Shown piece by piece: positions 7,734-64,000 of a DNA stretch of 64,000 nt. The first letter of the stretch is position 1, and every line of letters begins with the position of its first letter. The notes beneath the pieces were generated by a model. The model worked only from the letters and a program-made list of their open reading frames with translations. It was not told the origin of the DNA and ran no database searches. Made by a program: the position numbers and the translations under genes. The DNA lies in contig JAUFOR010000002.1 in assembly GCA_040285745.1 (NCBI GenBank), forward strand, positions 1,178,001 to 1,242,000, in the 5' to 3' direction. The stretch is from Barthelona sp. PCE. Lineage: Eukaryota.

Positions 7734-8804
7734 ATGCCAGATCCTATAGAATCCATTGTTTCCATCTTTGAGGATAGGCAGCCACTTATTCTTGCACCAA
7801 TGGTTCGATATTGTAACATTCCATGTCGTTTAATCTATCAACGTTGGGGTGCAGACATTACATTCACAGAAGCGATTGTAGCACAAAAAATTATACGGTC
7901 TACAATGCTTTATAATATAGATACATCAAGCTACTCCCTTTTTGATAAGAAAGGTACCAAATATCTAACAAAAAGCGCAGAGGAACGGGCAGTTGTGCTT
8001 CAAATGAGTGTATCCGACCCCTTACTAGCGGTTGAAGCATATCAAAAGGTCCAAGTAATGTTTGAAAACGTGGATATTAATTGTGGCTGTCCTGCTGCAT
8101 TTTCCACCCATTCAGGGGGCGGGGGGTGTCTCATGGACAACGTTGAAGCCATCGAGGCCATCGTTCTTGCTCTCAGACCCCATGTTAAAGGATCACTTTC
8201 ATGCAAGATTCGTGTGTTGCCGGATCCAGAGAAAATGAGGGAATTCACAGAACGCATTTGTAGTACAGGGATTGATTTCCTTTCTGTACACGCTCGTTTT
8301 CCTGGTGACCCGCGTTCCACACCAGTGGAGTTGGATTTATTCAAGGTTTGCCTTGAGGTTGCTCGACTGAGTGGTGTGCCCTGTGTGTACAACGGCAGCA
8401 TAACCGATGTGGAGTCGTTCAACAGTATAAAAGAAACTGTGGAAGCTGACGGGTACATGATTGCAAGAGGAGCTATGTATGACATGGCTGTATTCCATAA
8501 GATCAAGCACCAAGGCAACAATGACAAGGTTCCCACACTGTGTGATCTGTTCAAGATGCACTATGACTCAACAGTTCGGTTTGGAAATCACACAAAGAAT
8601 CTGAAGCGTGTTGTGCAATCTTCAGTATCGAAATCTTTCCGAAAAACGCAATTAATGAGCGAAGTCAACGCCATGAAGACTTTGGAAGACTTTAGTAATC
8701 TTATTTGGACACTTTACAACCAACATGGTTTGGGTAGTAATTATTATTCAGAAATGGAGTTACAACCTGTCATTGAAGAAGAGCAGCAACAAACTGAGCA
8801 GTGA
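7734..8804 (+). CDS. tRNA-dihydrouridine synthase (DUS2-like)
   Basis: ILAPMVR, DINCGCP, SCKIR, SVHAR, YNG, MIARGA. Confidence 0.92.
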   Translation: MPDPIESIVSIFEDRQPLILAPMVRYCNIPCRLIYQRWGADITFTEAIVAQKIIRSTMLYNIDTSSYSLFDKKGTKYLTKSAEERAVVLQMSVSDPLLAVEAYQKVQVMFENVDINCGCPAAFSTHSGGGGCLMDNVEAIEAIVLALRPHVKGSLSCKIRVLPDPEKMREFTERICSTGIDFLSVHARFPGDPRSTPVELDLFKVCLEVARLSGVPCVYNGSITDVESFNSIKETVEADGYMIARGAMYDMAVFHKIKHQGNNDKVPTLCDLFKMHYDSTVRFGNHTKNLKRVVQSSVSKSFRKTQLMSEVNAMKTLEDFSNLIWTLYNQHGLGSNYYSEMELQPVIEEEQQQTEQ

Positions 8805-10506
8805 AGCGGCCTACAAACATCTGCTTTGCGCCAAGATCACGGCAATGACCTTCTTTTATAACTTCTCCTTCATTGCGATCGAAGATTTTATAACGATTGT
8901 CGCGTGAGAACCCAACTACATATCGTCCACACGGTGTGCACTGGACACAAACGGTGTGGTTTTCAAACGTACACAGAGTATTGCGATTTTCTGTTTCTAT
9001 TTCCCACTCAATGATTGAGTCTCCTGTAGTTGTGAATGCAAAACCTTCAATGAGTCGAGAATTAGTGGACATATCAGGATGCACCAATTGTTTAACGGCA
9101 GTGCACGTTTCAAGATCCCAAACAACAAACTGTTTGTTTGAGTGCGTGGTTATGATTCTGTTGTTCGCTTCATCGACAGAAATACTCATTACACGGCTTT
9201 TAGTGCGTCTAGTGAGCTCGAAAACGGTCTCTTCGGTCGCAATGTCAACCTTAACAATAGTGCCGTTTAGCAGACCAACATACACATAATCAGCGCAGTT
9301 TGGAACCACGTGCGTGAAGCTAATGTGCTTTTCCATTTCGATTCTGGCAACTTCAACAGCTCTCGTGGTGTATACTATAAGGTAGTTATTCACACCGGTG
9401 GTAATGATTTCATCATTTGCAGAAAGTTTATACACAGCAGATTTTTTTGGTCTGAAGCGGTAGTTATTGTTGTTTGGTACATCTAAGATGTTAATCACAC
9501 CATTGCCCATGCCATGAACAACTGTGTTTCCGGTCGCAGAGACAGCAGCGGAGAAAATTTGCTTACTCCCTATCTTCTGCTTCTTGATGAAATTGCCTTG
9601 TGGGTTATAAAGAGATATTTTGGCACCGGAATGACCGTATGCCAGGTTTCCATTGGGAGATACGCAGAAGCTTCGTACAAAAGGAACACGAAATTCATCG
9701 ATTGTTTCACCAGCCATATCATATATGAATGTGTGCCCAGTGTATGCGACACAATACACTTTTGCACTGCGAACAAAGACATGGTCAAGTTCACATGTGT
9801 GAGTTATCGTATTATAGCAGTTGTATGTATTAAGATTCCAGAAGCGAGCAGTTCTATCGCGAGAAACAGATATAAGTTTGTCTGAAACAATATGAACGCT
9901 CTCAACCGTACCATCGTGACCATTGAGAGTGTGCACAAATTCACCAGTGGTCTGATCCCAAATGCGAATTGTGCAATCTTTAGAACAACTTGCAATATAT
10001 CTTCCATTGCCACCCGCGGCAATACCATAGATTGGACCTACGTGTCCCTCAAGGACCGCTAAACAGTTGCCATCCAGGTCCCATATGCGAACATCATTAT
10101 CTTCAGAACCTGAAATAACACGTCGACCGTCATGCGAGAAGCATACTGAAGTAACTGTATTTTTATGCCCAACGCATTCAGCATATGATTCCTCTGCTCG
10201 ATTCCAGATGCGTACAGTTGCGTCGTTAGCACCAGATGCCACAATTTCCTTTCTAAAAGCTGCAACAGCACGCACGTGACTGGAGTGACGATGTAGTAAG
10301 AGTAGATTTCGGTTATTGGGGTTCCACATGATAACACTTCCATCCCAGGCACCAAAAAAGACCTCGTTAGAGTCAGGAGAGAAGGTTATTGCTTGATTAA
10401 ACTTTCGATCACCATGCTTTTCATATCTGTAGAAAAACATGTTAGAATCAAGGAGAACATCTCCTTGGGGAAGATCACATGGGATATTGGGGAGGTTTTC
10501 AGCCAT
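8770..10506 (-). CDS. WD40 repeat protein (probably two propellers)
   Basis: Multiple GH...WD/WN repeats, e.g. GHKNTVTSVCFS...SGSEDNDVRIWD. Confidence 0.9.
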   Translation of the reverse strand: MAENLPNIPCDLPQGDVLLDSNMFFYRYEKHGDRKFNQAITFSPDSNEVFFGAWDGSVIMWNPNNRNLLLLHRHSSHVRAVAAFRKEIVASGANDATVRIWNRAEESYAECVGHKNTVTSVCFSHDGRRVISGSEDNDVRIWDLDGNCLAVLEGHVGPIYGIAAGGNGRYIASCSKDCTIRIWDQTTGEFVHTLNGHDGTVESVHIVSDKLISVSRDRTARFWNLNTYNCYNTITHTCELDHVFVRSAKVYCVAYTGHTFIYDMAGETIDEFRVPFVRSFCVSPNGNLAYGHSGAKISLYNPQGNFIKKQKIGSKQIFSAAVSATGNTVVHGMGNGVINILDVPNNNNYRFRPKKSAVYKLSANDEIITTGVNNYLIVYTTRAVEVARIEMEKHISFTHVVPNCADYVYVGLLNGTIVKVDIATEETVFELTRRTKSRVMSISVDEANNRIITTHSNKQFVVWDLETCTAVKQLVHPDMSTNSRLIEGFAFTTTGDSIIEWEIETENRNTLCTFENHTVCVQCTPCGRYVVGFSRDNRYKIFDRNEGEVIKEGHCRDLGAKQMFVGRFTAQFVAALLQ

Positions 10507-14290: not shown

Positions 14291-15004
14291 TCAATTTTTT
14301 TTTGGATTTAGATAGATTTTAGTAATTGATTTTTCATACATTAATTCAGAATCTTCATCCCACCAAAGATATTCAGGCACCTCTTCTTCACCTATTGGAT
14401 CAAATACATTGTTGTAGAATTTGTCTTTTTCTTGTAATTTGAGTTGGTGTCTGCGGTGAAATTCTAAATTACCAAACCACACCGGCAGCGAGATTTTCTC
14501 CTCATCAATGACACAGTAGCTCATATTATTTTGTTTTCCTCGTGATATCCATACATTAAGGCATGCATTATAGTATATTTTAACAAACGTAGCATCGTTT
14601 CTTGTCATTAGAACCATTGGATGATGAGCCCAACCAATAGAATTGTCCAGCTTGATTCGTTGTGGAAGACCTCTCCATTGGTTGTTAGTTAAGTCGCCAA
14701 TTTTTGATTTGTTAACATGAATAGATGAATTGCGTGGCTCACGCACTTTGCACTGTTGTATGATGTTGTCCAGCTCATTATTCTGAACCCATGTTTGGAA
14801 CAATCGCTTCATTGTCCTGTGACTGTTAATTATTTGCATTGCCTCTACACGCTGTTTCCCAAGCCTGCGGTTGTCCAACATGCTACAATTGATTTCGAAC
14901 AGTTCTGAGAGCTCATCATGAGCTTCTTTATAGCAACCGTTTTGGAGAAGAGCTCGTATCCGGTCTAAACTGTTTGTTTGTATGAGCGGTAGGAAGAGCT
15001 GCAT
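14291..15004 (-). CDS. Hypothetical protein (237 aa)
   Basis: ATG-started ORF in a tightly packed position; no family recognised. Confidence 0.6.
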   Translation of the reverse strand: MQLFLPLIQTNSLDRIRALLQNGCYKEAHDELSELFEINCSMLDNRRLGKQRVEAMQIINSHRTMKRLFQTWVQNNELDNIIQQCKVREPRNSSIHVNKSKIGDLTNNQWRGLPQRIKLDNSIGWAHHPMVLMTRNDATFVKIYYNACLNVWISRGKQNNMSYCVIDEEKISLPVWFGNLEFHRRHQLKLQEKDKFYNNVFDPIGEEEVPEYLWWDEDSELMYEKSITKIYLNPKKN

Positions 15005-30223: not shown

Positions 30224-30882
30224 AGGCCCAAAAAGGAGAGCAAAAAAGAATTACAATTCATATTTTTTGCACATATAGTAGTCATATTGGCACTGGTTGT
30301 TGAATTCAAAACGTATCCCGAGATTAATGAACAAATATATCCTTATGATCATCAGAAGGAAAGAATTTGAATCCGCGTAAAAGTTAGCTTTAATTAACTT
30401 TTGGTTAGTTAGATTTCTGCAACTCCTTCCAGTTGAGTTGAAGCATGCGCTTTTCAAAATAGAATCTACAGATATTTAATTTTTGCAGGTTGTCATTTAG
30501 TAGCATTGTAGCAGTTATAATGTTCAGTTTGGGAGTTTGAGATAGATATTTATCGCTGTTTAGATGTCGGTTGGTACATTCATTTATTCTAGAATTGGGA
30601 ATTTAATAATAATTGTTTATTACGTTATCTTACACAGTTTGTTTCAACATTTTCAAGGTCTTATGCACTACTCATGTCGATGAAAAGTTTGAAGTGTTGC
30701 TGAGCTTAAGTGTCAAGATTTTTGATCTTATCTTGTTACTCTGAATATAAGTAAGTAAGTAAATTTTAAACATTAAGTTTTACTTGGCTATTCTCAGAAA
30801 CACTGTATCAAACATATTTTATTATATTGTAATCATATTAGAACGTATTATTTATTTCTACTTTGTTCAAAACTTTTTTCTA

Positions 30883-32046
30883 ATGAAAAAAAAGCAGGAA
30901 ATACTGGTGCAGATGATTGTAATCTGCTTATTTACTGTTCTTGCATGTACAACATCACTTGGGGCTTCATATTCAAAGAAAAGCATTATAGACAGCAGAA
31001 CTAAGGACTTTAGCTCTTTCAAGGACATGAAATTGGGCAAAGATGAAAAGTTGGACATCGTATATATGTGGGTTAACGGTTCTGACCCTGATTTTATCAG
31101 GGAAATTCAAAAGTATCGTCCTTCATCAGAAGAGAGCAATCCACAACGGTTCCAGGACAACTACGAACTGTTCTTCTCACTTCGTAGTTTACATAAGTAT
31201 GTACCGTTTGTTAATAATATTTATATCGTCACTAACGGTCAAGTTCCATTTTGGCTGAATACCAGCGCCCCAAATATCAAGGTTGTGCCGCATAAGGACA
31301 TCTTTACCGACCCAACAGTACTACCAGTCTTTAATAGTCAGGCTATTGAAGGAAATATTCACAATATTGCAAATTTAACAGATTACTATATATTATTGAA
31401 CGATGATATGTTTTTTAGAGGAAAGAATGGTACACCATTGGGATATCATGATTTCTTCACACCAGAAGGGAAAATGAAAGTGTATTTTGAAGTGTATCCG
31501 ATTCCAAATTGGTTATATTATAGAACACATGAGAAATTTTTGAAATATACTATTGATGTTGTGAATGGTGTTGTGCCCAACCCAAGAAGAGAAGTTCCAT
31601 ATACATTGCATACACCTAGGATATATAATAAGCATTGGACAAATTTTTTCCTTTCTTTATCTCCAGAAGAACATGCAAAGGTTTCAGCCAGACGTTTCCG
31701 AAAGAAAGATAATATCGATGTGATTTTGTATCTGAGTCTAATTATGGATAGATTCAGTGAAGCATATATTCCTATTTCGGAAACAAATTACATGGATTAT
31801 GATGAAGTAGCACTTAGGAATTCTGTTGACTATGAAACAGACCTGTTTAAAATGAGGAAGACGGTTGATGAATGGCCTACTAATGGTTTTACAATTCAAG
31901 ATTACGTTGATTATGATAAACCTTTAGATACGATAATTCGTGGACGTAAAGTGATGCGAATGTTTATGAAGTTAGAGTTTTCAGAACCATCTCCTTGGGA
32001 AAATAAGGATTTTACCTTTTCTGCAGAGTTTTGGGAAGGTCAGTAA
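30883..32046 (+). CDS. Stealth-family sugar-1-phosphate transferase with N-terminal anchor
   Basis: CR1 DIVYMWVNGSDP; CR2 RFQDNYELFFSLRSL...FNSQAIE...LNDDMFF; CR3 HTP...RFR; CR4 FTIQD...PSPWE. Confidence 0.93.
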   Translation: MKKKQEILVQMIVICLFTVLACTTSLGASYSKKSIIDSRTKDFSSFKDMKLGKDEKLDIVYMWVNGSDPDFIREIQKYRPSSEESNPQRFQDNYELFFSLRSLHKYVPFVNNIYIVTNGQVPFWLNTSAPNIKVVPHKDIFTDPTVLPVFNSQAIEGNIHNIANLTDYYILLNDDMFFRGKNGTPLGYHDFFTPEGKMKVYFEVYPIPNWLYYRTHEKFLKYTIDVVNGVVPNPRREVPYTLHTPRIYNKHWTNFFLSLSPEEHAKVSARRFRKKDNIDVILYLSLIMDRFSEAYIPISETNYMDYDEVALRNSVDYETDLFKMRKTVDEWPTNGFTIQDYVDYDKPLDTIIRGRKVMRMFMKLEFSEPSPWENKDFTFSAEFWEGQ

Positions 32047-45629: not shown

Positions 45630-46871
45630 ATGAAGTTATCGCAAGCATTCCAACCTCCGTTACCCTGCCCGCATTTGTATAGTATTTCAATTCCATATTT
45701 GTTTGATTGGATAGGTGATTATGACTTCCAAGAGCATCTTGAGCAAGGAAAACTGTCATGCAGACACTGCACAACCAAACATAAGCAGCAACTTTGGGCA
45801 TGTTTAACAACAGGTTGTACAGAAATTTGTTGTATGAAGCATATATCTCGGCATTTTGTTGAAACGAATGATGGGAAGTCAGACCATATCACTTTTGGTA
45901 ACAGTTTTGAGAGCTGTAGTGATGAACATAGTATTATTATGAATCTTTTTACAGGTTCCTTGTATTGTTTGAAATGTGAAAAAGAAATTTGCAGTTATGA
46001 ATATGATGATGTAGAGATCTTTGAACTGGTGCACAAGATTCGATCATGCTTAACGAATCCTGTTGATTTAGATGAAGAGTTTATGACAGAAGCACGACAG
46101 CAACGTATTGAAGAACGTATAGAACGTAAAAAGCAGGAAGAAATTAAAAAAGAAGAGGAAAAGAAAGAGAGAAAGAGACAAAAAGTTGAAGCAAAGAAAG
46201 CTGAACGTCGTGATAATCGATCTAAAAAACGTCAAATTATCAAAAAGATTACAACTTCCAACCCCCTTATCATGCCACCTCAGGATAAATTCAGAGCAGA
46301 GTCGCGTGTAACTACAGGCTCACTCATGCTCAAGCATGGTCGTCGTGGTACTCCTAATCAACGTTACATTTTTGTTACAAAGGAGATGGATTCGATATGT
46401 TGGCGAGACCCAAGAGGAACAAAGATCAAGGGCTCAATTGATGTTGCCGACATTGTTGAGGTCCTCGAGGGCCAGCAGACAAAGGTGTTTGCTCGTAATT
46501 CAGGTCGACCGAATCGTGAAGAGTATTCTTTCAGTATTATCGGCACAAATAGGACTTTAGATCTTGAAGCTGCTACAAAGAATCAAGCCAGAGAGTGGAT
46601 TTCTTCCCTACGTTATCTGATGGCAAAGAATGATCCAACAAAGCAAAAAGAAGCTGAGGAATTTGGTAAGAATAATCCTGGTGGTGTTACAGCATTGATA
46701 GAAAAGATTGATGCCGAAGAACTCAACGATGACATTGTGAGTAACTTCTCTGGTCTTAGTTCAGATGATATTGTACAAAAAGCAAAGAATGCCAGTATGG
46801 TTGTCAATAATGAGAGTTTCTTTGAAGAAATGGAGAACTACCATGATGCAAAGTTCGAGGAAGAAGAGTAA
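45630..46871 (+). CDS. ZnF-UBP + coiled coil + PH-domain protein
   Basis: CPHL...CRHC...WACL..GC...H...HF...H...YCLKC (ZnF-UBP); LKHGRRGTP...WRDP...GQQTKVF...RTLDL...W (PLC-like PH). Confidence 0.8.
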   Translation: MKLSQAFQPPLPCPHLYSISIPYLFDWIGDYDFQEHLEQGKLSCRHCTTKHKQQLWACLTTGCTEICCMKHISRHFVETNDGKSDHITFGNSFESCSDEHSIIMNLFTGSLYCLKCEKEICSYEYDDVEIFELVHKIRSCLTNPVDLDEEFMTEARQQRIEERIERKKQEEIKKEEEKKERKRQKVEAKKAERRDNRSKKRQIIKKITTSNPLIMPPQDKFRAESRVTTGSLMLKHGRRGTPNQRYIFVTKEMDSICWRDPRGTKIKGSIDVADIVEVLEGQQTKVFARNSGRPNREEYSFSIIGTNRTLDLEAATKNQAREWISSLRYLMAKNDPTKQKEAEEFGKNNPGGVTALIEKIDAEELNDDIVSNFSGLSSDDIVQKAKNASMVVNNESFFEEMENYHDAKFEEEE

Positions 46872-55230: not shown

Positions 55231-58200
55231 GGATTCAAATTGTTTCCAGTCTAAAATTTCAGTGCAGACAGTAAAGAAATCCATTTAAATTGCAGAACAT
55301 ATAAGGTTGGTATAAATTTCGTTTGAGGGTGAGTCATAAAAAAATTGCGCAAATGATTTTTGATCTTTTATCACTTTTCTACACAGCTTATTAATCGATT
55401 TTTGATGGAAGATTTACCTAAACTAACTGGTAATTACATTAACTTTCTCAAAATAGACTTTTCAAGCTATATCCAAGATTATTATGCTAATAATCTTCTG
55501 ACAAAAGAAAAGATAGATGTTGACCGTTGCTCATCTATTTTATACAATGCTTTGACACGATTGGGTACGTCTGGGCTTGAACCAATTCAAAACGTTATTC
55601 TCACAGTTCTGACATCTCAGCGTAAAAATATCAACCGTAATACCTCCAAACCACAGATTCCTAATGACTCATGTTGTATTTTTGCAACTCAAAAACGTGC
55701 TTTTGAAAATGCTTGTGGATATTTTCACATCGATCCAGATGGTATTACAGAACTTCAGGATATGGTTGAAATGTTTGTCTCTACTGTCAAAGACAACATA
55801 ATAGCATTTGGAGAATTTTGTTATGATGTGGATAATAACCGAATCAAATATATTGCAAAGTATCCTGCAACCATGGGTATCTTTCGTTTATGTGACCGTT
55901 TTAGCTGCTGTGGAGAATATGTAATGCCCGAACTACGTGAAACATTTGAAAATTTTTTAAAGCAGGGTTCTAAAGGAAACTTGATGAAAGAGGATTTCAC
56001 TCCATTTTTCACAAATTATAGGCGAACAATGCACACCGCAGGTAAGAAGATAATTCATTTTTACCCTTTGAGTTCAGAAATTTCGGTTTGTAAGGAAACA
56101 TACAGGCAGATTTATCTTGTACCAAAGAATATTACCCCTAAGCTTATTCCGGAAGGGTGCCCCGATTCGTGGCCGAAGAAGAATTCAATTTCAATCAAAG
56201 GTATAACAACTTATGGGGAAAATCAAGAGCAAGCCCAATACCTAACAGTGTTAATGTGGTTATCAACATGTAAGTATTCCCAAGTAACACCACCTACATA
56301 TGTTACTGAAATACTTGCATCATTAAATGATAGTAAGATGAATCTTCTCAAATTCAGGAACTCATCTGCAAAATTTTGTGCTGACTATCTGAGCTTTTCA
56401 AAGTTGCAAACTGGGGTATTAAATTTATCTCCGTCAAACAGACAAACAACGTTTTTAAAATATCCTTATGTTTTGGAGCAAGCCCACCATGTAATTAAAA
56501 AGTCTATTTGCAACCATTTGAGAAGAAGTTCCAAAAAAGCAGTTCTAATGATCGACAAGTGGTCGACAAACAAAGAAAAAAATAGTGTGCTTGCAATTCT
56601 CTTGAAGGTACCTCATGAGATTGATGATCTGACTCTACCTGAATGGGTGCATAGTGGAGTGTTTTTGTGGCAGGTTTCAGATAAAAAGCAACATATTATC
56701 AAGAAGCGGTCAGTTGATTTTGGAAATATGATTTCTGAACGTTTGAGGGGCAAGTGGATTTTACTAGACCTTTACACAGAGATTGGAAGAAAATCTTATG
56801 ATGTTTTTTTTGCATTGCTCACTACTTTGCTTCGTTTTCGTCTTCATGAAATACCTATTTCATTTCAAGCTGACCGTGGAAAAGTGGAGCGTAAAGCACT
56901 TTCACTTTTATTGGAGCATTTAGAAGGTAAATCAACAAAAGATACCATTAAGTTTATTGAGAACAAGATAGATTCCATTGCCTGGCAATTTACAACCGAT
57001 GAAGAGTTGTTCTGTGAGTTCTTCACTGCTCATGACTTTTATTTTCATATGAAACGACTTAACTCAACTTTTGAAGATCTCCGCAATTCATATTTGAAGA
57101 AGATGTTTTACAATTGGTATCAAAATGATTGTTATTCTACAACTTCAGCACACGGTTTAAAAATGTATTCGTGTGCATTTTATATGTTATCAAATTTTCT
57201 AAGAACTTTCTTTCCTACTTTACAGCAAACTATCAAAGTTCATCAAAGAGGTTGTGTTCTTGGTAAGTTTAACAAGTTGTTTGATACATTTTTCAATCAA
57301 TTTAAGTTAAGAGTAGAAAATTTCGTTTTTCTTCACAAAGATAATATGTTTTTAGAGGATGTGTTTGAATTATTCAAGAAAGAATATTGTTTTGCATTAG
57401 AAAAAGACGGAATTAATTGCTCAATGATGGTTACGAAGAAAATGTTCAAAACTTTGATGAAAGGAGGTGTGTCTAACAACATAGTTGAGAATTACAGTGA
57501 GAGGCATTTCGATATTGCATTCGAAGCACTTCAGGAAGATGAAAACGTGATGAATGAATTCGAGGAATGGAGAAAATCCCGTGTTGTTAGTTTTACTTTC
57601 GAAGATATCAAAGATCATTTCAAACAATGTTTTGTTAAGCTTAATGAATTGTATCACGAAGGATTGGCCTTTGTGAGGTCATGGAGACATCTTTACGGTA
57701 AAGCAATGGTTGTTTTCAAAATTCTTTTTGAGGAAGCCTATGGAAAGGGTGATGCGTATTTAAGAGATAACAGCGCCAAGGCATTTGCCATATGTGAGAT
57801 TTTCAAGACCATAAAGATATTTATTACCACAGAAGGGTGTGATCATCATAATATCATCAGGGATATGTTTGAAAATGAAGAGATTTCTCTATTGCTGTTC
57901 TTTTGTGATGTTATTGAGGGTTTGAAGGCTATAATGACCACTATAGAAGCTGATGACTATCGCATGGTGGATGCAGGAAAGCTTATTGCAAGGTTTGTGT
58001 TGATGCTCAGAAATAAGAATTTAATTGAATACGTTGACATTGAGACTGCGACAACCATCAAAGGTGAATGTAGATATAAGGGCAACATGAAAGCATACTT
58101 TGAAGATACAGTGCCTAAAAAAGTTCTAACCAGAAAAGATGAAGAAAGACAGCCTGACACAGATAGCGACAATGAGAGAAGAATGTCAAGCGGATATGAT

Positions 58201-59136
58201 CATAAAATAGGAGCATGTGCTGAATGCTATAACGACAAAGATTTTGCTATTGAGTACAATTACAATCCACCCCACTTTAGCTCTGACACTGATTTAGAGA
58301 CTATTGACAGGCTCAATAGGGTTAGAAATTTGTTTAATTCATGTTTAATGCACTGTATTAGCAGATGTATGAATGAATATGACTTTACAGGAACGATTGT
58401 GTCTCCCATACCTTATTCTTTCTTTTACATTGGTTCTAAGCTTTCAAATGTTATGAAAGAAAGTATGTTATGGAATTCGTCGAGAGTATATGATGTTCCG
58501 GCAACAACTTGCCCTGTTGAACGTTTTTTTTCTCAGGCTAGCATTAGAGAGATGAAATCTGGACATTCTTCCCATTTTTCAACTCGTGTTATGAAGATGA
58601 AGCTGCATCGCTCACTTCCATACATTCTTATTAGAGATGATGTATCCACCACTGTTTTAGATGAATTTGTTGACGTTAATAGATTCAAATGGGAGCTCTT
58701 GCAGCGACGCAGAAGCGAAAAAGAGGAAGAAGATGTTGATCAACCTCCTGTTAAACTGCAAAGAAAGGAAGATTTTGATGATTTTGAAGAAGATGTTTCT
58801 GACATTTCAGATTCTTAAAATGATGATTCAATTTGTGAAGATGATAATATTTTTGGAATATACACCTATTCAGAATCCGAATAGTCTACTCTTAAATAGT
58901 ATTTTTGAATAATTGTATAAATGAATATTTTTGACGTTCTAATTATGACTATGTATTATGCACATGTGTGCTATTTTATGTATATTGACAGAAAACACGG
59001 GAGTAAACATATTATTATATTTTTTTGATAAGTAGAAATTTTCTCACTTTCCCTCTATTTTTCACATTCAATGTAAGGCGCTGGTGCTCCTCCCTAAATT
59101 TTGAATTTATTACCTTCTACGGCAAAATTTGAATCC
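55231..59136 (+). mobile_element. Putative hAT-like DNA transposon bounded by an 11-bp inverted repeat
   Basis: GGATTCAAATT (55231-41) and AATTTGAATCC (59126-36) flank the transposase; no exact 8-bp target-site duplication (TSD). Confidence 0.4.
55405..58818 (+). CDS. hAT-superfamily DDE transposase-like protein (~1137 aa)
   Basis: First Asp in LMIDKWST, second Asp in QADRG, possible xxxH motif (TSAH), C-terminal VPATTCPVERFFS with the catalytic Glu. Confidence 0.8.
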   Translation: MEDLPKLTGNYINFLKIDFSSYIQDYYANNLLTKEKIDVDRCSSILYNALTRLGTSGLEPIQNVILTVLTSQRKNINRNTSKPQIPNDSCCIFATQKRAFENACGYFHIDPDGITELQDMVEMFVSTVKDNIIAFGEFCYDVDNNRIKYIAKYPATMGIFRLCDRFSCCGEYVMPELRETFENFLKQGSKGNLMKEDFTPFFTNYRRTMHTAGKKIIHFYPLSSEISVCKETYRQIYLVPKNITPKLIPEGCPDSWPKKNSISIKGITTYGENQEQAQYLTVLMWLSTCKYSQVTPPTYVTEILASLNDSKMNLLKFRNSSAKFCADYLSFSKLQTGVLNLSPSNRQTTFLKYPYVLEQAHHVIKKSICNHLRRSSKKAVLMIDKWSTNKEKNSVLAILLKVPHEIDDLTLPEWVHSGVFLWQVSDKKQHIIKKRSVDFGNMISERLRGKWILLDLYTEIGRKSYDVFFALLTTLLRFRLHEIPISFQADRGKVERKALSLLLEHLEGKSTKDTIKFIENKIDSIAWQFTTDEELFCEFFTAHDFYFHMKRLNSTFEDLRNSYLKKMFYNWYQNDCYSTTSAHGLKMYSCAFYMLSNFLRTFFPTLQQTIKVHQRGCVLGKFNKLFDTFFNQFKLRVENFVFLHKDNMFLEDVFELFKKEYCFALEKDGINCSMMVTKKMFKTLMKGGVSNNIVENYSERHFDIAFEALQEDENVMNEFEEWRKSRVVSFTFEDIKDHFKQCFVKLNELYHEGLAFVRSWRHLYGKAMVVFKILFEEAYGKGDAYLRDNSAKAFAICEIFKTIKIFITTEGCDHHNIIRDMFENEEISLLLFFCDVIEGLKAIMTTIEADDYRMVDAGKLIARFVLMLRNKNLIEYVDIETATTIKGECRYKGNMKAYFEDTVPKKVLTRKDEERQPDTDSDNERRMSSGYDHKIGACAECYNDKDFAIEYNYNPPHFSSDTDLETIDRLNRVRNLFNSCLMHCISRCMNEYDFTGTIVSPIPYSFFYIGSKLSNVMKESMLWNSSRVYDVPATTCPVERFFSQASIREMKSGHSSHFSTRVMKMKLHRSLPYILIRDDVSTTVLDEFVDVNRFKWELLQRRRSEKEEEDVDQPPVKLQRKEDFDDFEEDVSDISDS

Positions 59137-59166: not shown

Positions 59167-61482
59167 ATGTTTAAGAAACGCCGAAAAAGGGGCAAAGTCA
59201 ATGGAGAGGGCAAAGTTGATGAAAAAAATTCAATAGTGTTGTCTAGTTGTGATACTAACATTGGTTTTAGTGATATACCGGTCGATGTATTTGCCCAAGG
59301 GCTGAAAAAAGCACAGCGTGTTGATGTGAGTGTATCTAAAAAGCCTAAACTGAGTAAGGAAGCATTATTTGCAAATTTAAACCCTATAGCTGGGGATTTT
59401 GTTTTTGAAGACGGTCAGAATGATGAGATTCTCTTCTATCCCGTTGATGACCTTGTCAAGTCTACCACGAAGGAGCAACGAGTATCATTTATTTCTGATA
59501 TTGACCTCGGTTTTTTTGATACAATCAAAGAGGGTAGTGAAGCGGTTGAAAAGGCCATGTCTGAGGACAGAGAAGTACGAAAAGCAACCATATTAAAGAA
59601 TACATTGAAAACGACAAAAAGAAATTTTTCAGATCATCTTCCTATTGATGCGTTCAGGGATCATATTATTGATCTTGTTAAAAGAAACCAAGTTACAATC
59701 ATCACAGCCCAAACAGGTAGTGGAAAATCTACTAGATTACCTGTTTTCCTAGCTGCATCATTCTGTGACAGTGTCGTTTGCACTCAACCTAGACGTGTTG
59801 CATGTATTTCTCTCGCACGACATGTAAGGAACACGATGGAGAGCAGCGGTATGCCATACGAGGTAAGGCATGCTGTGCGCTTTGATGACCAGACTACTCC
59901 AAGGACGAATATTTCTTACATGACAGATGGATTACTGCTGAAACATATGGAGGCGGACATAGATCTGTCACAATACGATGCAGTAATCATCGACGAAGCA
60001 CATGAGCGCTCAGTCAACACAGATTTACTGGTATCCCTATTAGGTCAACTCATTGGCAGGAATTCTGAGCTTCGGGTAATAATAACTTCTGCGACTGCTG
60101 ACGTTGAGCTTTACAAAGGTTACTTCCCAGAGGCACCTGTTGTTGACGTACCAGGACGACTTTATACCATAGAAGAACGATTTTCTGAAGTTATTTTCCC
60201 AGATTACGTTGTTGCAGCTGCTCAGCAAGCTATAGAATTGCATAAAGAGGAAAAAACAGGTCATATATTGTGTTTTTTACCAGGTCAAGCTGAAATAGAA
60301 ACTGCAGTTTCTTTGTGTGAAGATCACATTGAAAGAGAGGTAAAAACAAACCCTCAGTTTGTAACACCGTTTGTACTGCCTTTGTACGGTGGACTACGGC
60401 CCGAGGAGCAGCAAAAGGTGCTAATCAATACACAAAGAAGGAAAATAATTTTCACAACAAACCTCGCTGAAACATCACTCACTATTCCTGAAGTAACCAC
60501 GGTGATTGACAGTGGGACAATGCGTGTTTCTTCATATTCTTCTTCATTAGGTGTTCAATCGCTGTTAACTGTTCCTGCATCACGAGCTATATGTACACAA
60601 AGAGCAGGTCGTGCTGGAAGAACACGTGCTGGTGTGTGCATTCACATGTTCCCCAAGCGCGTGTTCCAATTAGAACTTTTATCGCAAGTTCCACCTGAAA
60701 TTTTGAGATGCGACATATGTGATGTGGTATTACGTCTTCTTTCGCTTAGCGTTGACCCCCTAAAGTTCAATTACGTCACATCTCCGATAAGAGCTAATCT
60801 ACAACGCGCGATTGCAGAACTAACTCTTGTTGGAGCACTTCACAATGGTTTACTCACACCGTTAGGCGAGGAGATATCACGTTTCCCACTCAATCCACTG
60901 GATGCACGCTTACTTGTGGTTGGAAAGCATTTGGGAGTGGGTGAGGAGATGGCCATAATTATTGCTTTATCAACAACAGGAAGATTTACATTATCAGAGA
61001 AGGCTATTTCTCGCTTTTACACTGAATCAAGTGATCACCTAACACTCATAAAGTGCTTTGAATCATATGAGGTGATTGGTAGTGAAAGAGAACGTAAGCA
61101 ATGGGCGTCTCATATTGATCTGCCATTCGGTGCACTGGAAACAGCTAAAAGTATTAAAGATCAGCTGGTAAGGTTGATGAGACTATCCAGACAACCTTTT
61201 GTGACTGAATTACACCGGGAAATGCTTGTCAAACAGGCATTGGCTGTCGGTATGTTCACAAAAGCTGCGAGAATTAAAAGCACGAACGTTTACATCGCAT
61301 ACAGATCAATGTTAGAATGTGAAATTGCGAGAAATAGCGTAGTTAATGGATCTTCACCTAAGTATATTGTTTACAACAAGCTTCTCGTCACTGCCAAACG
61401 CAAAACATTACATATAATCACCGAAGTCCATCCCCATTGGTTAGATTCAGCCACAGATATGTACCGCTTGCTTAAAATTTAA
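59167..61482 (+). CDS. Spliceosomal DEAH-box RNA helicase (Prp16/Prp22-like)
   Basis: QTGSGKST, TQPRRVA, YMTDG, IIDEAHERS, TSAT, TNLAETSLTI, QRAGRAGR, HA2 domain SDHLTL. Confidence 0.92.
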   Translation: MFKKRRKRGKVNGEGKVDEKNSIVLSSCDTNIGFSDIPVDVFAQGLKKAQRVDVSVSKKPKLSKEALFANLNPIAGDFVFEDGQNDEILFYPVDDLVKSTTKEQRVSFISDIDLGFFDTIKEGSEAVEKAMSEDREVRKATILKNTLKTTKRNFSDHLPIDAFRDHIIDLVKRNQVTIITAQTGSGKSTRLPVFLAASFCDSVVCTQPRRVACISLARHVRNTMESSGMPYEVRHAVRFDDQTTPRTNISYMTDGLLLKHMEADIDLSQYDAVIIDEAHERSVNTDLLVSLLGQLIGRNSELRVIITSATADVELYKGYFPEAPVVDVPGRLYTIEERFSEVIFPDYVVAAAQQAIELHKEEKTGHILCFLPGQAEIETAVSLCEDHIEREVKTNPQFVTPFVLPLYGGLRPEEQQKVLINTQRRKIIFTTNLAETSLTIPEVTTVIDSGTMRVSSYSSSLGVQSLLTVPASRAICTQRAGRAGRTRAGVCIHMFPKRVFQLELLSQVPPEILRCDICDVVLRLLSLSVDPLKFNYVTSPIRANLQRAIAELTLVGALHNGLLTPLGEEISRFPLNPLDARLLVVGKHLGVGEEMAIIIALSTTGRFTLSEKAISRFYTESSDHLTLIKCFESYEVIGSERERKQWASHIDLPFGALETAKSIKDQLVRLMRLSRQPFVTELHREMLVKQALAVGMFTKAARIKSTNVYIAYRSMLECEIARNSVVNGSSPKYIVYNKLLVTAKRKTLHIITEVHPHWLDSATDMYRLLKI

Positions 61483-61507: not shown

Positions 61508-64000
61508 TTATTCCCAATCAAAAGGATCAATGAGAGGCTCCTCATCTTCATAGAGGGGACGTGTACAAATCCAGCGACGCGACTCCATCAGCTCAACAAT
61601 TTTTTCTGCAACCATCAAATTCAAGCCTGAAATAGATCTGGCATCAGCAATGGTCAAATAACCTAGTTCCCAACATCGATCAACGTATAGTTCCTTGACA
61701 GCCAAATAGTGGTCAGGAACAACTCTCCATTTCTCACAAAGCTCACGCTCATCAGGCTCAAGGCTCATAGAAAGTGGGTATGGTCCCAAATCAAGGAACG
61801 CACCGAAGGTAGGAGTGGCTGAAGTAAGACAAGCGCAAGCAACGGCGACTGCCTCAAAATCATATGAAGATTCCATAACAAGATCGAGAGTACGTGTACC
61901 ACCCTTGACAACAAGAGATAGTGAACGCTCATCTTGATCAGGATCTATTGCTGCTTGACGGTGGAATACTTCGGTATGTTGACCGAGGATGATTCTAGTG
62001 ACGTCCTTGAGTTCAACGTAATGATCCTTACCCTTATCAGAAATGTCTCCCTTGGGATCACGCCAACATAGACGCGTCCTATCTTGGTTCAAGTGTACAT
62101 ACCTAAGATGAGGCTTACCTGAACGACCAAACTTGATTGCAATGATACCTGCATTTTGTACATACTCGATAATACGTTCATAGAGATCGATAGTTGACTG
62201 ATGACCGAATGCACTTTCATACTCCTCATCTTCCATTTCCTCATCACGTCCTCTTCTGAGCAGCATTTCAGGATTACGTTCAACACGGTTTTGACCAAGA
62301 TCATCGATTTGATCATTATCAATCCAATCATCACCAGGTAGTTTTGATCGAAGCTCCATAATAACATATTCCAGTTCTTCTCTCTTCTTCTTTTCATCCT
62401 CAAGCTGGTTCTGAAGATCCTCATACATAGCCTCCAGTTCAGGATTGACAACCTGTTGTACAGATTCTTCTGGTGGTGGTGGTGGTGGAAGTTCCTCAAG
62501 CCTCTCCTTAAGTTCAGACTCTTTCTTCTTTAACTCGTTCTGAAGCTTTTTAATCTTCTTATCCTTCTTCTTCAAGTCAGCCTTACTTGATTCCATACGT
62601 TTTTTCAAACGAGCAAGCTCTTCCTCAACCTTTTGTAATTTTGCAATTTTTTTACGCAACTCCTTCTTCAGACCTTCTACTTCATCGTTAAACTGGTTTT
62701 GGGCCTCACCTCTGTTAGATTTCATGGTTTCTACAGCATCTTCCAACTCAGTAACACGTTTTAGTGCTTTAGAAAGAGAAATACGAAGGTGCTCATGTTC
62801 GCGTTCATTTTCATTAGATTCAGAACTCTGGTTGCGCAACTGATTCTTTAGATCTTTAATCTTATCTTCAAACTTACGACGTGCTTCACTAAAGTCATGA
62901 ACCAGTTTCTCCTGCTTTGCTTGAGCATCTGTTCTGAACTTCTTCAATACATTTTCTTGCTCACGTTCGTATTCCTGCTTGTACTCATCAAACTCTTCTT
63001 TCAACTCCTCTCTCAATTCATCAAGTTCAAGTTTCAAGTTACTATCAACACTCCTCTTGCGATCATTCTCGAGTCTAGCCAACTCTGTCTTCAATTTCTT
63101 GATTATGAGCGTGATTTGACGCTCAAATTGAGGATTATGCACATCATGATCATCAAACTGAGTACTATAGCCATATACTTCCATGCAAACACGCAGTTCA
63201 GCCTCCAGCCTGATAATTTCATCACTGTTGACCTCATCAGGAACGCTACCGCTAGAAAACTGACTGTTTAAAGAACTTGTTGAAGCAGTGCTACTGGCAC
63301 GAACTCGGGAAGCCTCAGGAAGAATGTCTGAGAATGAAGGGTTCTTATGCGACAACCTTCTTGTGAATTCTAGTGAAATAGCACCACATGGGTCTGTTGG
63401 GGGAAGACATAAACAAAAAAGACAATTACTGTATCCAGATAATGCTGGTTCAAGATATCTCGTCAATAAACACCCTTCTGTGGGAATGGAAAGCTTACCT
63501 TGGTTCATTGCAGCGATACAGCAACCAAGTTTATCAAGAGTAGATGAGACAAACCTAATTTCTTGAGTTTTTTTTGATTTCGACGATGGTTCCGGTGGTA
63601 CACATTCTAAAAAGTACAAAGATGAAGATATTTTCACAGTGGGAGAGATGGGATCAGGTCTTGTGATAATAATGCGAAGCAAAAAAAAAGAATTATCCTT
63701 TCGCTTATGTTGTGAAACTTTCTCGAGAAAAGCTGCTGCTGCGAGCTCATTGGTGATCTTCACGCTCTCTACGTTACGTAATTCAACTTCTTCTGAACGT
63801 GTGTTGACAGATACAGGTTGACTTCCGTTAAGAACATCAAAGAATGTATCACAAAAGTATTCAACGGCCTGTACATGGAGCTCTACGTCATCTTCCAACT
63901 CAGCAAAAATTTGTCCAATGGCCTGATAAGCGAGACCCTCTTGTCCACGACGATAATCAAATAAAGTTGTTGATTTTCCGCCTGTTGCAGGTCCAAAACC
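61508..64000 (-). CDS. Kinesin-like protein (5' partial) with degenerate motor, coiled coil, PH domain and SWIRM-like C-terminus
   Basis: Frame open to the window edge: GFGPATGGKST P-loop; LTRYLEPALSG..CLFCLCLPP; KFGRSGKPH PH domain; ERELCEKWRVVPDHYLAVKE. Confidence 0.75.
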   Translation of the reverse strand, partial: GFGPATGGKSTTLFDYRRGQEGLAYQAIGQIFAELEDDVELHVQAVEYFCDTFFDVLNGSQPVSVNTRSEEVELRNVESVKITNELAAAAFLEKVSQHKRKDNSFFLLRIIITRPDPISPTVKISSSLYFLECVPPEPSSKSKKTQEIRFVSSTLDKLGCCIAAMNQGKLSIPTEGCLLTRYLEPALSGYSNCLFCLCLPPTDPCGAISLEFTRRLSHKNPSFSDILPEASRVRASSTASTSSLNSQFSSGSVPDEVNSDEIIRLEAELRVCMEVYGYSTQFDDHDVHNPQFERQITLIIKKLKTELARLENDRKRSVDSNLKLELDELREELKEEFDEYKQEYEREQENVLKKFRTDAQAKQEKLVHDFSEARRKFEDKIKDLKNQLRNQSSESNENEREHEHLRISLSKALKRVTELEDAVETMKSNRGEAQNQFNDEVEGLKKELRKKIAKLQKVEEELARLKKRMESSKADLKKKDKKIKKLQNELKKKESELKERLEELPPPPPPEESVQQVVNPELEAMYEDLQNQLEDEKKKREELEYVIMELRSKLPGDDWIDNDQIDDLGQNRVERNPEMLLRRGRDEEMEDEEYESAFGHQSTIDLYERIIEYVQNAGIIAIKFGRSGKPHLRYVHLNQDRTRLCWRDPKGDISDKGKDHYVELKDVTRIILGQHTEVFHRQAAIDPDQDERSLSLVVKGGTRTLDLVMESSYDFEAVAVACACLTSATPTFGAFLDLGPYPLSMSLEPDERELCEKWRVVPDHYLAVKELYVDRCWELGYLTIADARSISGLNLMVAEKIVELMESRRWICTRPLYEDEEPLIDPFDWE

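Follow-up and report, generated by a model that had tools for sequence, protein, structure and literature searches.

A predicted catalytically dead kinesin with a PH-SWIRM tail of the TbPH1 type in Barthelona sp. PCE

Catalytically dead kinesins have, to our knowledge, seldom been reported, and TbPH1 of Trypanosoma brucei is the one studied case we know of with a tail of the PH-SWIRM type. As described by Benz et al., TbPH1 (Tb927.3.2490) begins with a kinesin domain which was regarded as inactive (Walker A substitutions G93P and T/S95R); a coiled coil and a C-terminal PH domain come next, with a ‘homeodomain-like fold’ proximate to the latter (bioRxiv 10.1101/2021.09.29.462327). The protein is tightly bound to the active kinesin TbKifX2A, is located on the microtubule quartet and also contacts TbKifX2C, which consists of a motor and a PH domain; the preprint treats this system as kinetoplastid-specific (bioRxiv 10.1101/2021.09.29.462327). 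Here, a gene of corresponding build is described from Barthelona sp. PCE. It is located at the right end of a stretch of 64,000 nucleotides (assembly GCA_040285745.1, contig JAUFOR010000002.1, positions 1,178,001 to 1,242,000 of the forward strand), referred to as the window. Its product, P0002, is probably a catalytically dead pseudokinesin of the kinesin/coiled-coil/PH/SWIRM family which includes TbPH1, docking via its tail and presumably working with a partner.

Further kinesins with PH domains or dead heads are known. In Wickstead et al. 2010, ‘KISc-UNC104/PH’ forms a monophyletic cluster within X2; LmjF16.1580, LmjF30.1450, Tb927.6.2880 and Naegleria gruberi 71914, the last marked ‘divergent’, appear in its supplementary table as KISc-PH entries (PMC2867816). 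The X2 or KISc-PH kinesins, to which TbKifX2C of Benz et al. also belongs, resemble P0002 in having the motor at the N-terminus, PH at the C-terminus and no FHA. However, X2 members keep working motifs, and membership in X2 is a matter of motor phylogeny, for which the head of P0002 is too divergent. Kinesin-3 (Unc104/KIF1A) shares the N-terminal kinesin and the C-terminal PH domain with P0002, but differs by its FHA domain and its active motor; in P0002, moreover, SWIRM comes after the PH domain. Membership of P0002 in Kinesin-3 was considered and dropped, because the Pfam scans gave no FHA match. In budding yeast, Vik1/Cik1 and Kar3 pair a non-catalytic kinesin-fold subunit with an active kinesin via a coiled coil. 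Vik1/Cik1 belong to kinesin-14, carry the head at the C-terminus, are without PH or SWIRM and have no sequence relation to P0002; Benz et al. cite the pair as an analogy for TbPH1 (bioRxiv 10.1101/2021.09.29.462327).

As described there, TbPH1 has the same four parts as P0002 in the same order, i.e. inactive head, coiled coil, PH and a small helical domain. The heads differ in what was lost, as TbPH1 lacks Gly and Thr of Walker A, whereas P0002 keeps the Walker A form and lacks both switches. They differ also in their setting: TbPH1 is a kinetoplastid protein, whereas the window around P0002 has a layout with frequent strand changes, which is not kinetoplastid-like. A preliminary description of this DNA, made from the letters of the window, had called the architecture unrecognised. 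This claim of novelty fails, because the architecture is that of an already described family: the build has been published for TbPH1, and KISc-PH kinesins are listed by Wickstead et al. (PMC2867816). P0002 is a further TbPH1-type pseudokinesin of a little-studied kind and no new architecture.

The gene and the parts of its head are located in the window as follows:
61508..64000, minus strand: kinesin-like PH/SWIRM gene, window part (830 codons, frame open to the right edge of the window)
63293..64000, minus strand: kinesin-fold head, window part (P0002 residues 95-330 of 1-330; Pfam PF00225 and ESM Atlas model)
63971..63994, minus strand: P-loop GPATGGKS (Walker A form GxxxxGK[ST] kept, kinesin Gln and Thr of GQTxxGKT lost)
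63683..63715, minus strand: switch I remnant SQHKRKDNSFF, aligning to kinesin-1 NEHSSRSHSIF, with KRKDN opposite SSRSH
63587..63607, minus strand: switch II remnant ECVPPEP, aligning to DLAGSEK/R, with ECVPPE opposite DLAGSE
63452..63487, minus strand: L12/alpha5 region IPTEGCLLTRYL, replacing (V/I)PYRDSKLTRLL

The stop codon is found at 61508-61510, and the first 94 codons lie past the right edge of the window. Retrieval of this 5’ end, recommended in the preliminary description, added 94 N-terminal residues which open with a typical kinesin beta1 (…VVYMVTRLRPK). The full product has 924 amino acids (AA) and is identical to a protein-database entry from a contig of 2.13 Mb; the gene is intronless, and no introns are needed for its reading. 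P0002 is colinear with its canonical relative P0007 across residues 5-889 (blastp E=3.6e-43).

Residues 1-330 alone matched the Pfam family Kinesin (PF00225) with E=1.8e-18 and 67 bits (cut-off 29.3) over profile positions 1-308 of 327; in whole-protein Pfam scans of P0002, no Kinesin match was reported. The ESM Atlas model of residues 1-335 gave template modelling (TM) scores of 0.77-0.83 to kinesin models over 298-321 residues. Together with the replaced switches I and II, profile match and model fold bear out the degenerate kinesin head proposed before. The motifs were read from an alignment to kinesin-1 and from family alignments. Residues of switch I and switch II are essential for ATP hydrolysis in kinesins, and the L12 motif serves microtubule binding. 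Since the head of P0002 lacks the switch residues which kinesins require for hydrolysis, the prediction that it is catalytically dead, already made as ‘motor-dead’, is well supported by the sequence. The P-loop, which had been called altered, did lose the Gln and Thr of kinesins, yet its Walker A form is intact. It is not constant among the closest orthologues, reading GPATGGKS in P0002, GELTSGKS in P0003 and GTSTSGRQ in P0004. Likewise, PYRDSKLT of L12 became PTEGCLLT, QCGRSKVT and WLHHSLLT, respectively, and helix alpha4 varies among the three as well. The scaffolds of helices alpha4 and alpha5 are still recognisable in P0002 (LDKLGCCIAAM and LTRYL), RLRP is kept, and the head of P0004 is shortened to ~240 residues.

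A P-loop which fits GxxxxGK[ST], next to a retained RLRP, is what would be expected if P0002 were a still active, highly divergent motor or nucleoside triphosphatase (NTPase) using its intact Walker A. Yet SSR of switch I and the Gly of switch II are absent, GK[ST] is lost in the orthologue P0004, and the head is followed by a Ser-rich linker instead of a neck; we consider such an activity very improbable. By direct reading, no recognisable neck linker or neck coil is present directly after the head. The parts which follow are:
63158..63292, minus strand: Ser-rich linker, residues 331-375 (direct reading of the sequence)
62363..63157, minus strand: stalk, residues 376-640 (heptad score)
62525-63031 and 62339-62425, minus strand: heptad-periodic segments, residues 418-586 and 620-648 (heptad score)
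62483..62722, minus strand: conserved Lys-rich distal stalk, residues 521-600 (identity to P0003 and P0004)
62471..62488, minus strand: PPPPPP break in the stalk, residues 599-604

Coiled-coil propensity was measured using a simple home-made heptad score, which was compared with shuffled windows. Residues 418-586 and 620-648 scored above the 99th percentile of the shuffles, in agreement with the earlier reading of a long coiled coil with a poly-Pro stretch, which is the PPPPPP break. The stalk gave weak, sub-threshold Pfam matches to Filament and Apolipoprotein. Its Lys-rich distal part has a net charge of +9 and is 48-50% identical to P0003 and P0004.

The C-terminal part comprises the following features:
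61823..62194, minus strand: PLC-type PH domain with an N-terminal helix, residues 697-820 (family profile, AlphaFold model)
61568..61789, minus strand: Ada2-type SWIRM domain, residues 832-905 (family profile, structure comparison)
61691-61762, minus strand: LEPDERELCEKWRVVPDHYLAVKE, the SWIRM helix segment cited in the preliminary description
61511..61567, minus strand: acidic C-terminal tail CTRPLYEDEEPLIDPFDWE, common to P0002, P0003 and P0004

Searched alone against solved structures, the tail of P0002 matched the SWIRM domain of Ada2alpha (2aqe, E=2.5e-5) and the PH domain of PLCdelta1 (1mai, E=0.1). An alignment of 27 family tails, A1, was prepared and its profile was run against the solved structures. 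This profile matched 2aqe with E=5.1e-13 over chain residues 11-89 of 90, the mouse Ada2-like domain 2cuj with 8.9e-13, yeast Ada2 with 1.9e-9 and 3.8e-9, and 1mai with E=1.3e-8. Among the 27 tails, 21 matched Pfam PH_12 (PF16457) and seven matched Pfam SWIRM (PF04433) at E≤0.01. An AlphaFold model of the tail (240 residues), computed on A1, reached a predicted local distance difference test (pLDDT) value of 92.1 and a predicted TM score (pTM) of 0.86; from the high pTM, one packed unit of PH and SWIRM seems likely. With this model, Foldseek ranked 1mai at the top (E=2.3e-6) and superimposed 2cuj with a root mean square deviation (rmsd) of 1.1 Å over 81 columns. In VIA-align, the PH part matched PLCgamma2 (Z 16.2, rmsd 2.2 over 119 residues) and 1mai (Z 13.8), and the SWIRM part matched 2cuj (Z 13.0, rmsd 1.1 over 81 residues, 28% identity) and 2aqe (Z 10.8). 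Hence, both the PLC-like PH domain and the Ada2-type SWIRM domain of the preliminary description hold, and the C-terminus does model as SWIRM. The ‘homeodomain-like fold’ in tails of the TbPH1 type thus turns out as a genuine SWIRM domain of the Ada2 type, which would pack against a PLC-type PH domain. The word SWIRM is absent from the accessible parts of the TbPH1 preprint (bioRxiv 10.1101/2021.09.29.462327) and of Wickstead et al. (PMC2867816). Literature searches on kinesin, SWIRM and TbPH1-type tails, in which hits were partly judged by title or the start of the abstract, found neither the helical domain as SWIRM nor a large tail family with many live-headed members.

All SWIRM proteins known to us are chromatin proteins, and the closest solved relatives of the domain found here are SWIRM domains of Ada2 (2aqe, 2cuj and 2elj), which match it in fold and sequence pattern (rmsd 1.1 Å, 28% identity). 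A chromatin- or DNA-linked role via SWIRM, as in Ada2, Swi3 and LSD1, was thus weighed. The SWIRM domain of Ada2 is part of a chromatin-modifying complex, whereas that of P0002 is acidic and fused to a PH domain in the tail of a cytoskeletal motor. Its net charge is -4, and values between -7 and +5 across the 27 tails mean that the domain is not consistently basic; it is always joined to PH and kinesin stalk, and TbPH1 is cytoskeletal according to its description (bioRxiv 10.1101/2021.09.29.462327). We rate a role of P0002 in chromatin as highly unlikely, and a DNA-binding SWIRM was dropped on account of the acidic domain. In the PH domain, the Lys which closes beta1 and an Arg of beta2 are retained; they align with LKVKSSSWRRER of PLCdelta1, the strand region which binds inositol phosphate. 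Because these residues are kept, it is proposed that the tail binds membrane lipid; from the sequence, membrane binding by the predicted PH domain is plausible. The acidic C-terminal tails of the three closest orthologues contain PLIDPF(D)W. DPF and DPW motifs are ligands of adaptor ears, and this tail may be a short linear docking motif.

Conservation along the protein is uneven. From head through stalk to PH-SWIRM, identity of P0002 rises from 21% over 36% to 49% against P0003, and from 20% over 38% to 50% against P0004. In windows of 40 residues, the part up to residue 360 is 8-35% identical to P0003 and 5-28% identical to P0004, and values of 38-78% are reached from residue 521 on. Because identity is concentrated in distal stalk and tail and drops to ~21% in the head, the function apparently resides in the former. 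Thus, conservation lies in distal stalk and tail, and not on those faces of the head which would contact nucleotide or microtubule.

This distribution bears on the ‘microtubule-membrane linker’ which the preliminary description had proposed, and on its strictest version, a self-sufficient static tether. Here, P0002 would form a homodimer, its dead heads would bind microtubules in a rigor-like, nucleotide-insensitive manner, and the PH domain would hold the membrane. The kinesin fold is kept over the entire head, with the alpha4 and alpha5 scaffolds mentioned above, the PH domain retains its Lys and Arg, and the Lys-rich stalk (residues 521-600) with its charge of +9 could bind tubulin tails. 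However, the L12 motif is replaced, and differently so in P0002, P0003 and P0004, and a head which is ~21% identical among orthologues and has ~240 residues in P0004 does not resemble a conserved binding face. We regard such a tether as unlikely, though worth considering. Direct microtubule binding by the P0002 head is unsupported because L12 is not kept and the head is ~21% identical; it appears doubtful on these grounds. Of the proposed linker, the membrane side via the predicted PH domain stays plausible, and the head-microtubule side is not supported. An eroding head might also indicate a decaying gene without function. Against this speak the intact frame of 924 codons at 38% GC and the 38-78% identity of distal stalk and tail to two orthologues, which make decay the least probable of the explanations considered.

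For P0002 as a pseudokinesin docking via its tail, the following mode of action is proposed. P0002 would neither hydrolyse ATP nor walk. Its stalk would dimerise with itself or, most likely, with an active kinesin in analogy to TbPH1 and TbKifX2A, and this partner would then supply microtubule binding and motility. PH-SWIRM tail and Lys-rich distal stalk would dock the complex, either on a membrane or on a partner protein, with SWIRM acting as a protein-binding and not a DNA-binding module.

Relatives of the tail were collected by an exhaustive representative search with the last 285 residues of P0002 as query, which yielded 281 proteins at E≤1e-3, 44 at ≤1e-10 and three at ≤1e-30. Closest to P0002 are P0003 (916 AA) and P0004 (729 AA). 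Word-indexed homologue searches with the whole of P0002 and with residues 650-924 returned only P0002 itself. A further search, with A1 as query and set to longer proteins, listed eight owing to crowding. A Pfam Kinesin match was found in 29 of 40 tail relatives scanned (28 over the cut-off) and in 14 of 22 further relatives. The 11 of the 40 without such a match are the degenerate P0003, P0004, P0008, P0022, P0055 and P0064, the short P0005 and P0006, P0025, the PH-only P0040 and the myosin P0043. In a full-length alignment of 39 rows, 22 are canonical (GQTxxGK[ST], SSRSH, DLAGSE), one has DLGGSE and 16, including P0002, are degenerate. The canonical relative P0007 is nearly equidistant from KIF3B, kinesin-1, KIFC3 and KIF4 (199-209 bits).

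Motor states were scored on a quick tree of 52 tails, with 30 rows canonical, 17 dead and five cut or unclear rows left unscored (P0023, P0025, P0047, P0119 and P0133). At least six changes of motor state are needed on this tree, a lower bound from a rough, quickly made tree with several long branches. A single dead clade was rejected by the approximately unbiased (AU) test on the tail tree (p=1.6e-7). As far as the sequences indicate, the motor would have degenerated at least six times in the family, again a minimum given the roughness of the tree. P0018 and P0035, nested among canonical members, still reach ~310 bits with the family motor profile, although SSRSH is lost in both and DLAGSE is changed to DLVGSN and DLASSE, respectively. 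These two look like recent cases of motor degeneration.

Some members carry additional N-terminal sequence. In P0051 and P0074, a major sperm protein (MSP) domain precedes the kinesin, so that these proteins run MSP-kinesin-PH-SWIRM. P0074, named ‘Kinesin-like protein KIN-7N [Diplonema papillatum]’, is the one relative which came with a species name. The motors of P0152-P0155 likewise begin 200-390 residues into the protein, and no MSP match is listed at E≤0.001.

The family also contains a protein resembling TbPH1. P0122 (959 AA) reads GQKALPKR at residues 87-94, which corresponds to the two Walker A substitutions of TbPH1, one position off. Its tail matches the SWIRM region of P0002 (E=2.7e-6) and aligns throughout A1; the helical domain also matches the Pfam family ‘Ada2b-like C-terminal tri-helical’. 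Several points weigh against P0002 being a dead, partnered member of the TbPH1 family. P0122 is a putative orthologue of TbPH1, an assignment drawn from the motif alone, and in the quick tail tree the weakly supported placement of the clade of P0002, P0003 and P0004 (Shimodaira-Hasegawa-like approximate likelihood ratio test, SH-aLRT, 84-90) is not as its sister. The resemblance between P0002 and TbPH1 may accordingly be parallel motor loss and not orthology. Nucleotide binding would still be compatible with the intact Walker A form and the retained RLRP. With its own sequence, P0002 reaches 20.4-20.8 bits for Pfam PH_12 (cut-off 27) and 17.1 bits for Pfam SWIRM (cut-off 28.6), both under the respective cut-off. 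A partner kinesin for P0002 is suggested by analogy to TbPH1, and that P0002 dimerises, binds lipid and has lost its ATPase activity is in each case a prediction.

That the SWIRM domain is of the Ada2 type, and that heads died repeatedly within a wide family, adds modestly to what is known of TbPH1. In a more far-reaching and quite tentative reading, the PH-SWIRM tail would mark an old kinesin family extending beyond the ‘kinetoplastid-specific’ set, in which heads died at least six times, dead forms are obligate partners of live-headed paralogues and SWIRM is cytoplasmic. If true, one live head with one dead head would be a recurrent design, and SWIRM as a cytoplasmic cargo- or cytoskeleton-binding domain would have its first role outside chromatin. 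P0002 shows the TbPH1 build in an organism with a gene layout unlike that of kinetoplastids, and live and dead heads alternate in its large tail family; this offers a testable handle on the use of pseudo-motors and on a non-chromatin role of SWIRM. For annotation, kinesin-like PH/SWIRM protein is an apter gene name than hypothetical.

The window is compact and intron-poor, with ~81% covered by open reading frames (ORFs) of ≥ 200 AA, has a GC content of 38% and frequent strand switches. An alternative genetic code was considered and dropped, since the stop codons of 36 ORFs in the window (28 TAA, four TAG, four TGA) indicate the standard code. No lineage-typical promoter motif was evident upstream of 24 window ORFs, and Rfam and tRNA scans of the window gave no matches.

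The neighbour of the kinesin-like gene is a gene for a DEAH-type helicase (59167-61482, plus strand; DEAD, Helicase_C and OB_NTP_bind with low scores and no HA2 match at E≤0.01). Both genes are convergent, with 25 bases separating their stop codons. A protein of 413 AA (45630-46871, plus strand), identical to P0087, combines a zf-UBP finger with a PLC-type PH domain (PH_12, 33.8 bits). P0087 was matched by the kinesin-tail search via this PH domain (E=2.2e-7), so that the window holds two PH domains of this subtype, 15 kb apart. The largest unexplained gene of the window is an ORF of 1152 AA (55360-58818, plus strand) without Pfam match at E≤0.01. An ORF of 237 AA (14291-15004, minus strand) matches Pfam Pyr_excise (pyrimidine dimer DNA glycosylase) with 42 bits. 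This family is mostly bacterial and viral, and the ORF is a possible candidate for a transferred gene in a eukaryotic setting. Stealth CR1 (124 bits) and CR2 (40 bits) were matched by an ORF of 420 AA (30784-32046, plus strand). Finally, the ORFs for a dihydrouridine synthase (7734-8804, plus strand) and a WD40 protein (8770-10506, minus strand) are convergent, and their 3’ ends overlap by 35 bases.

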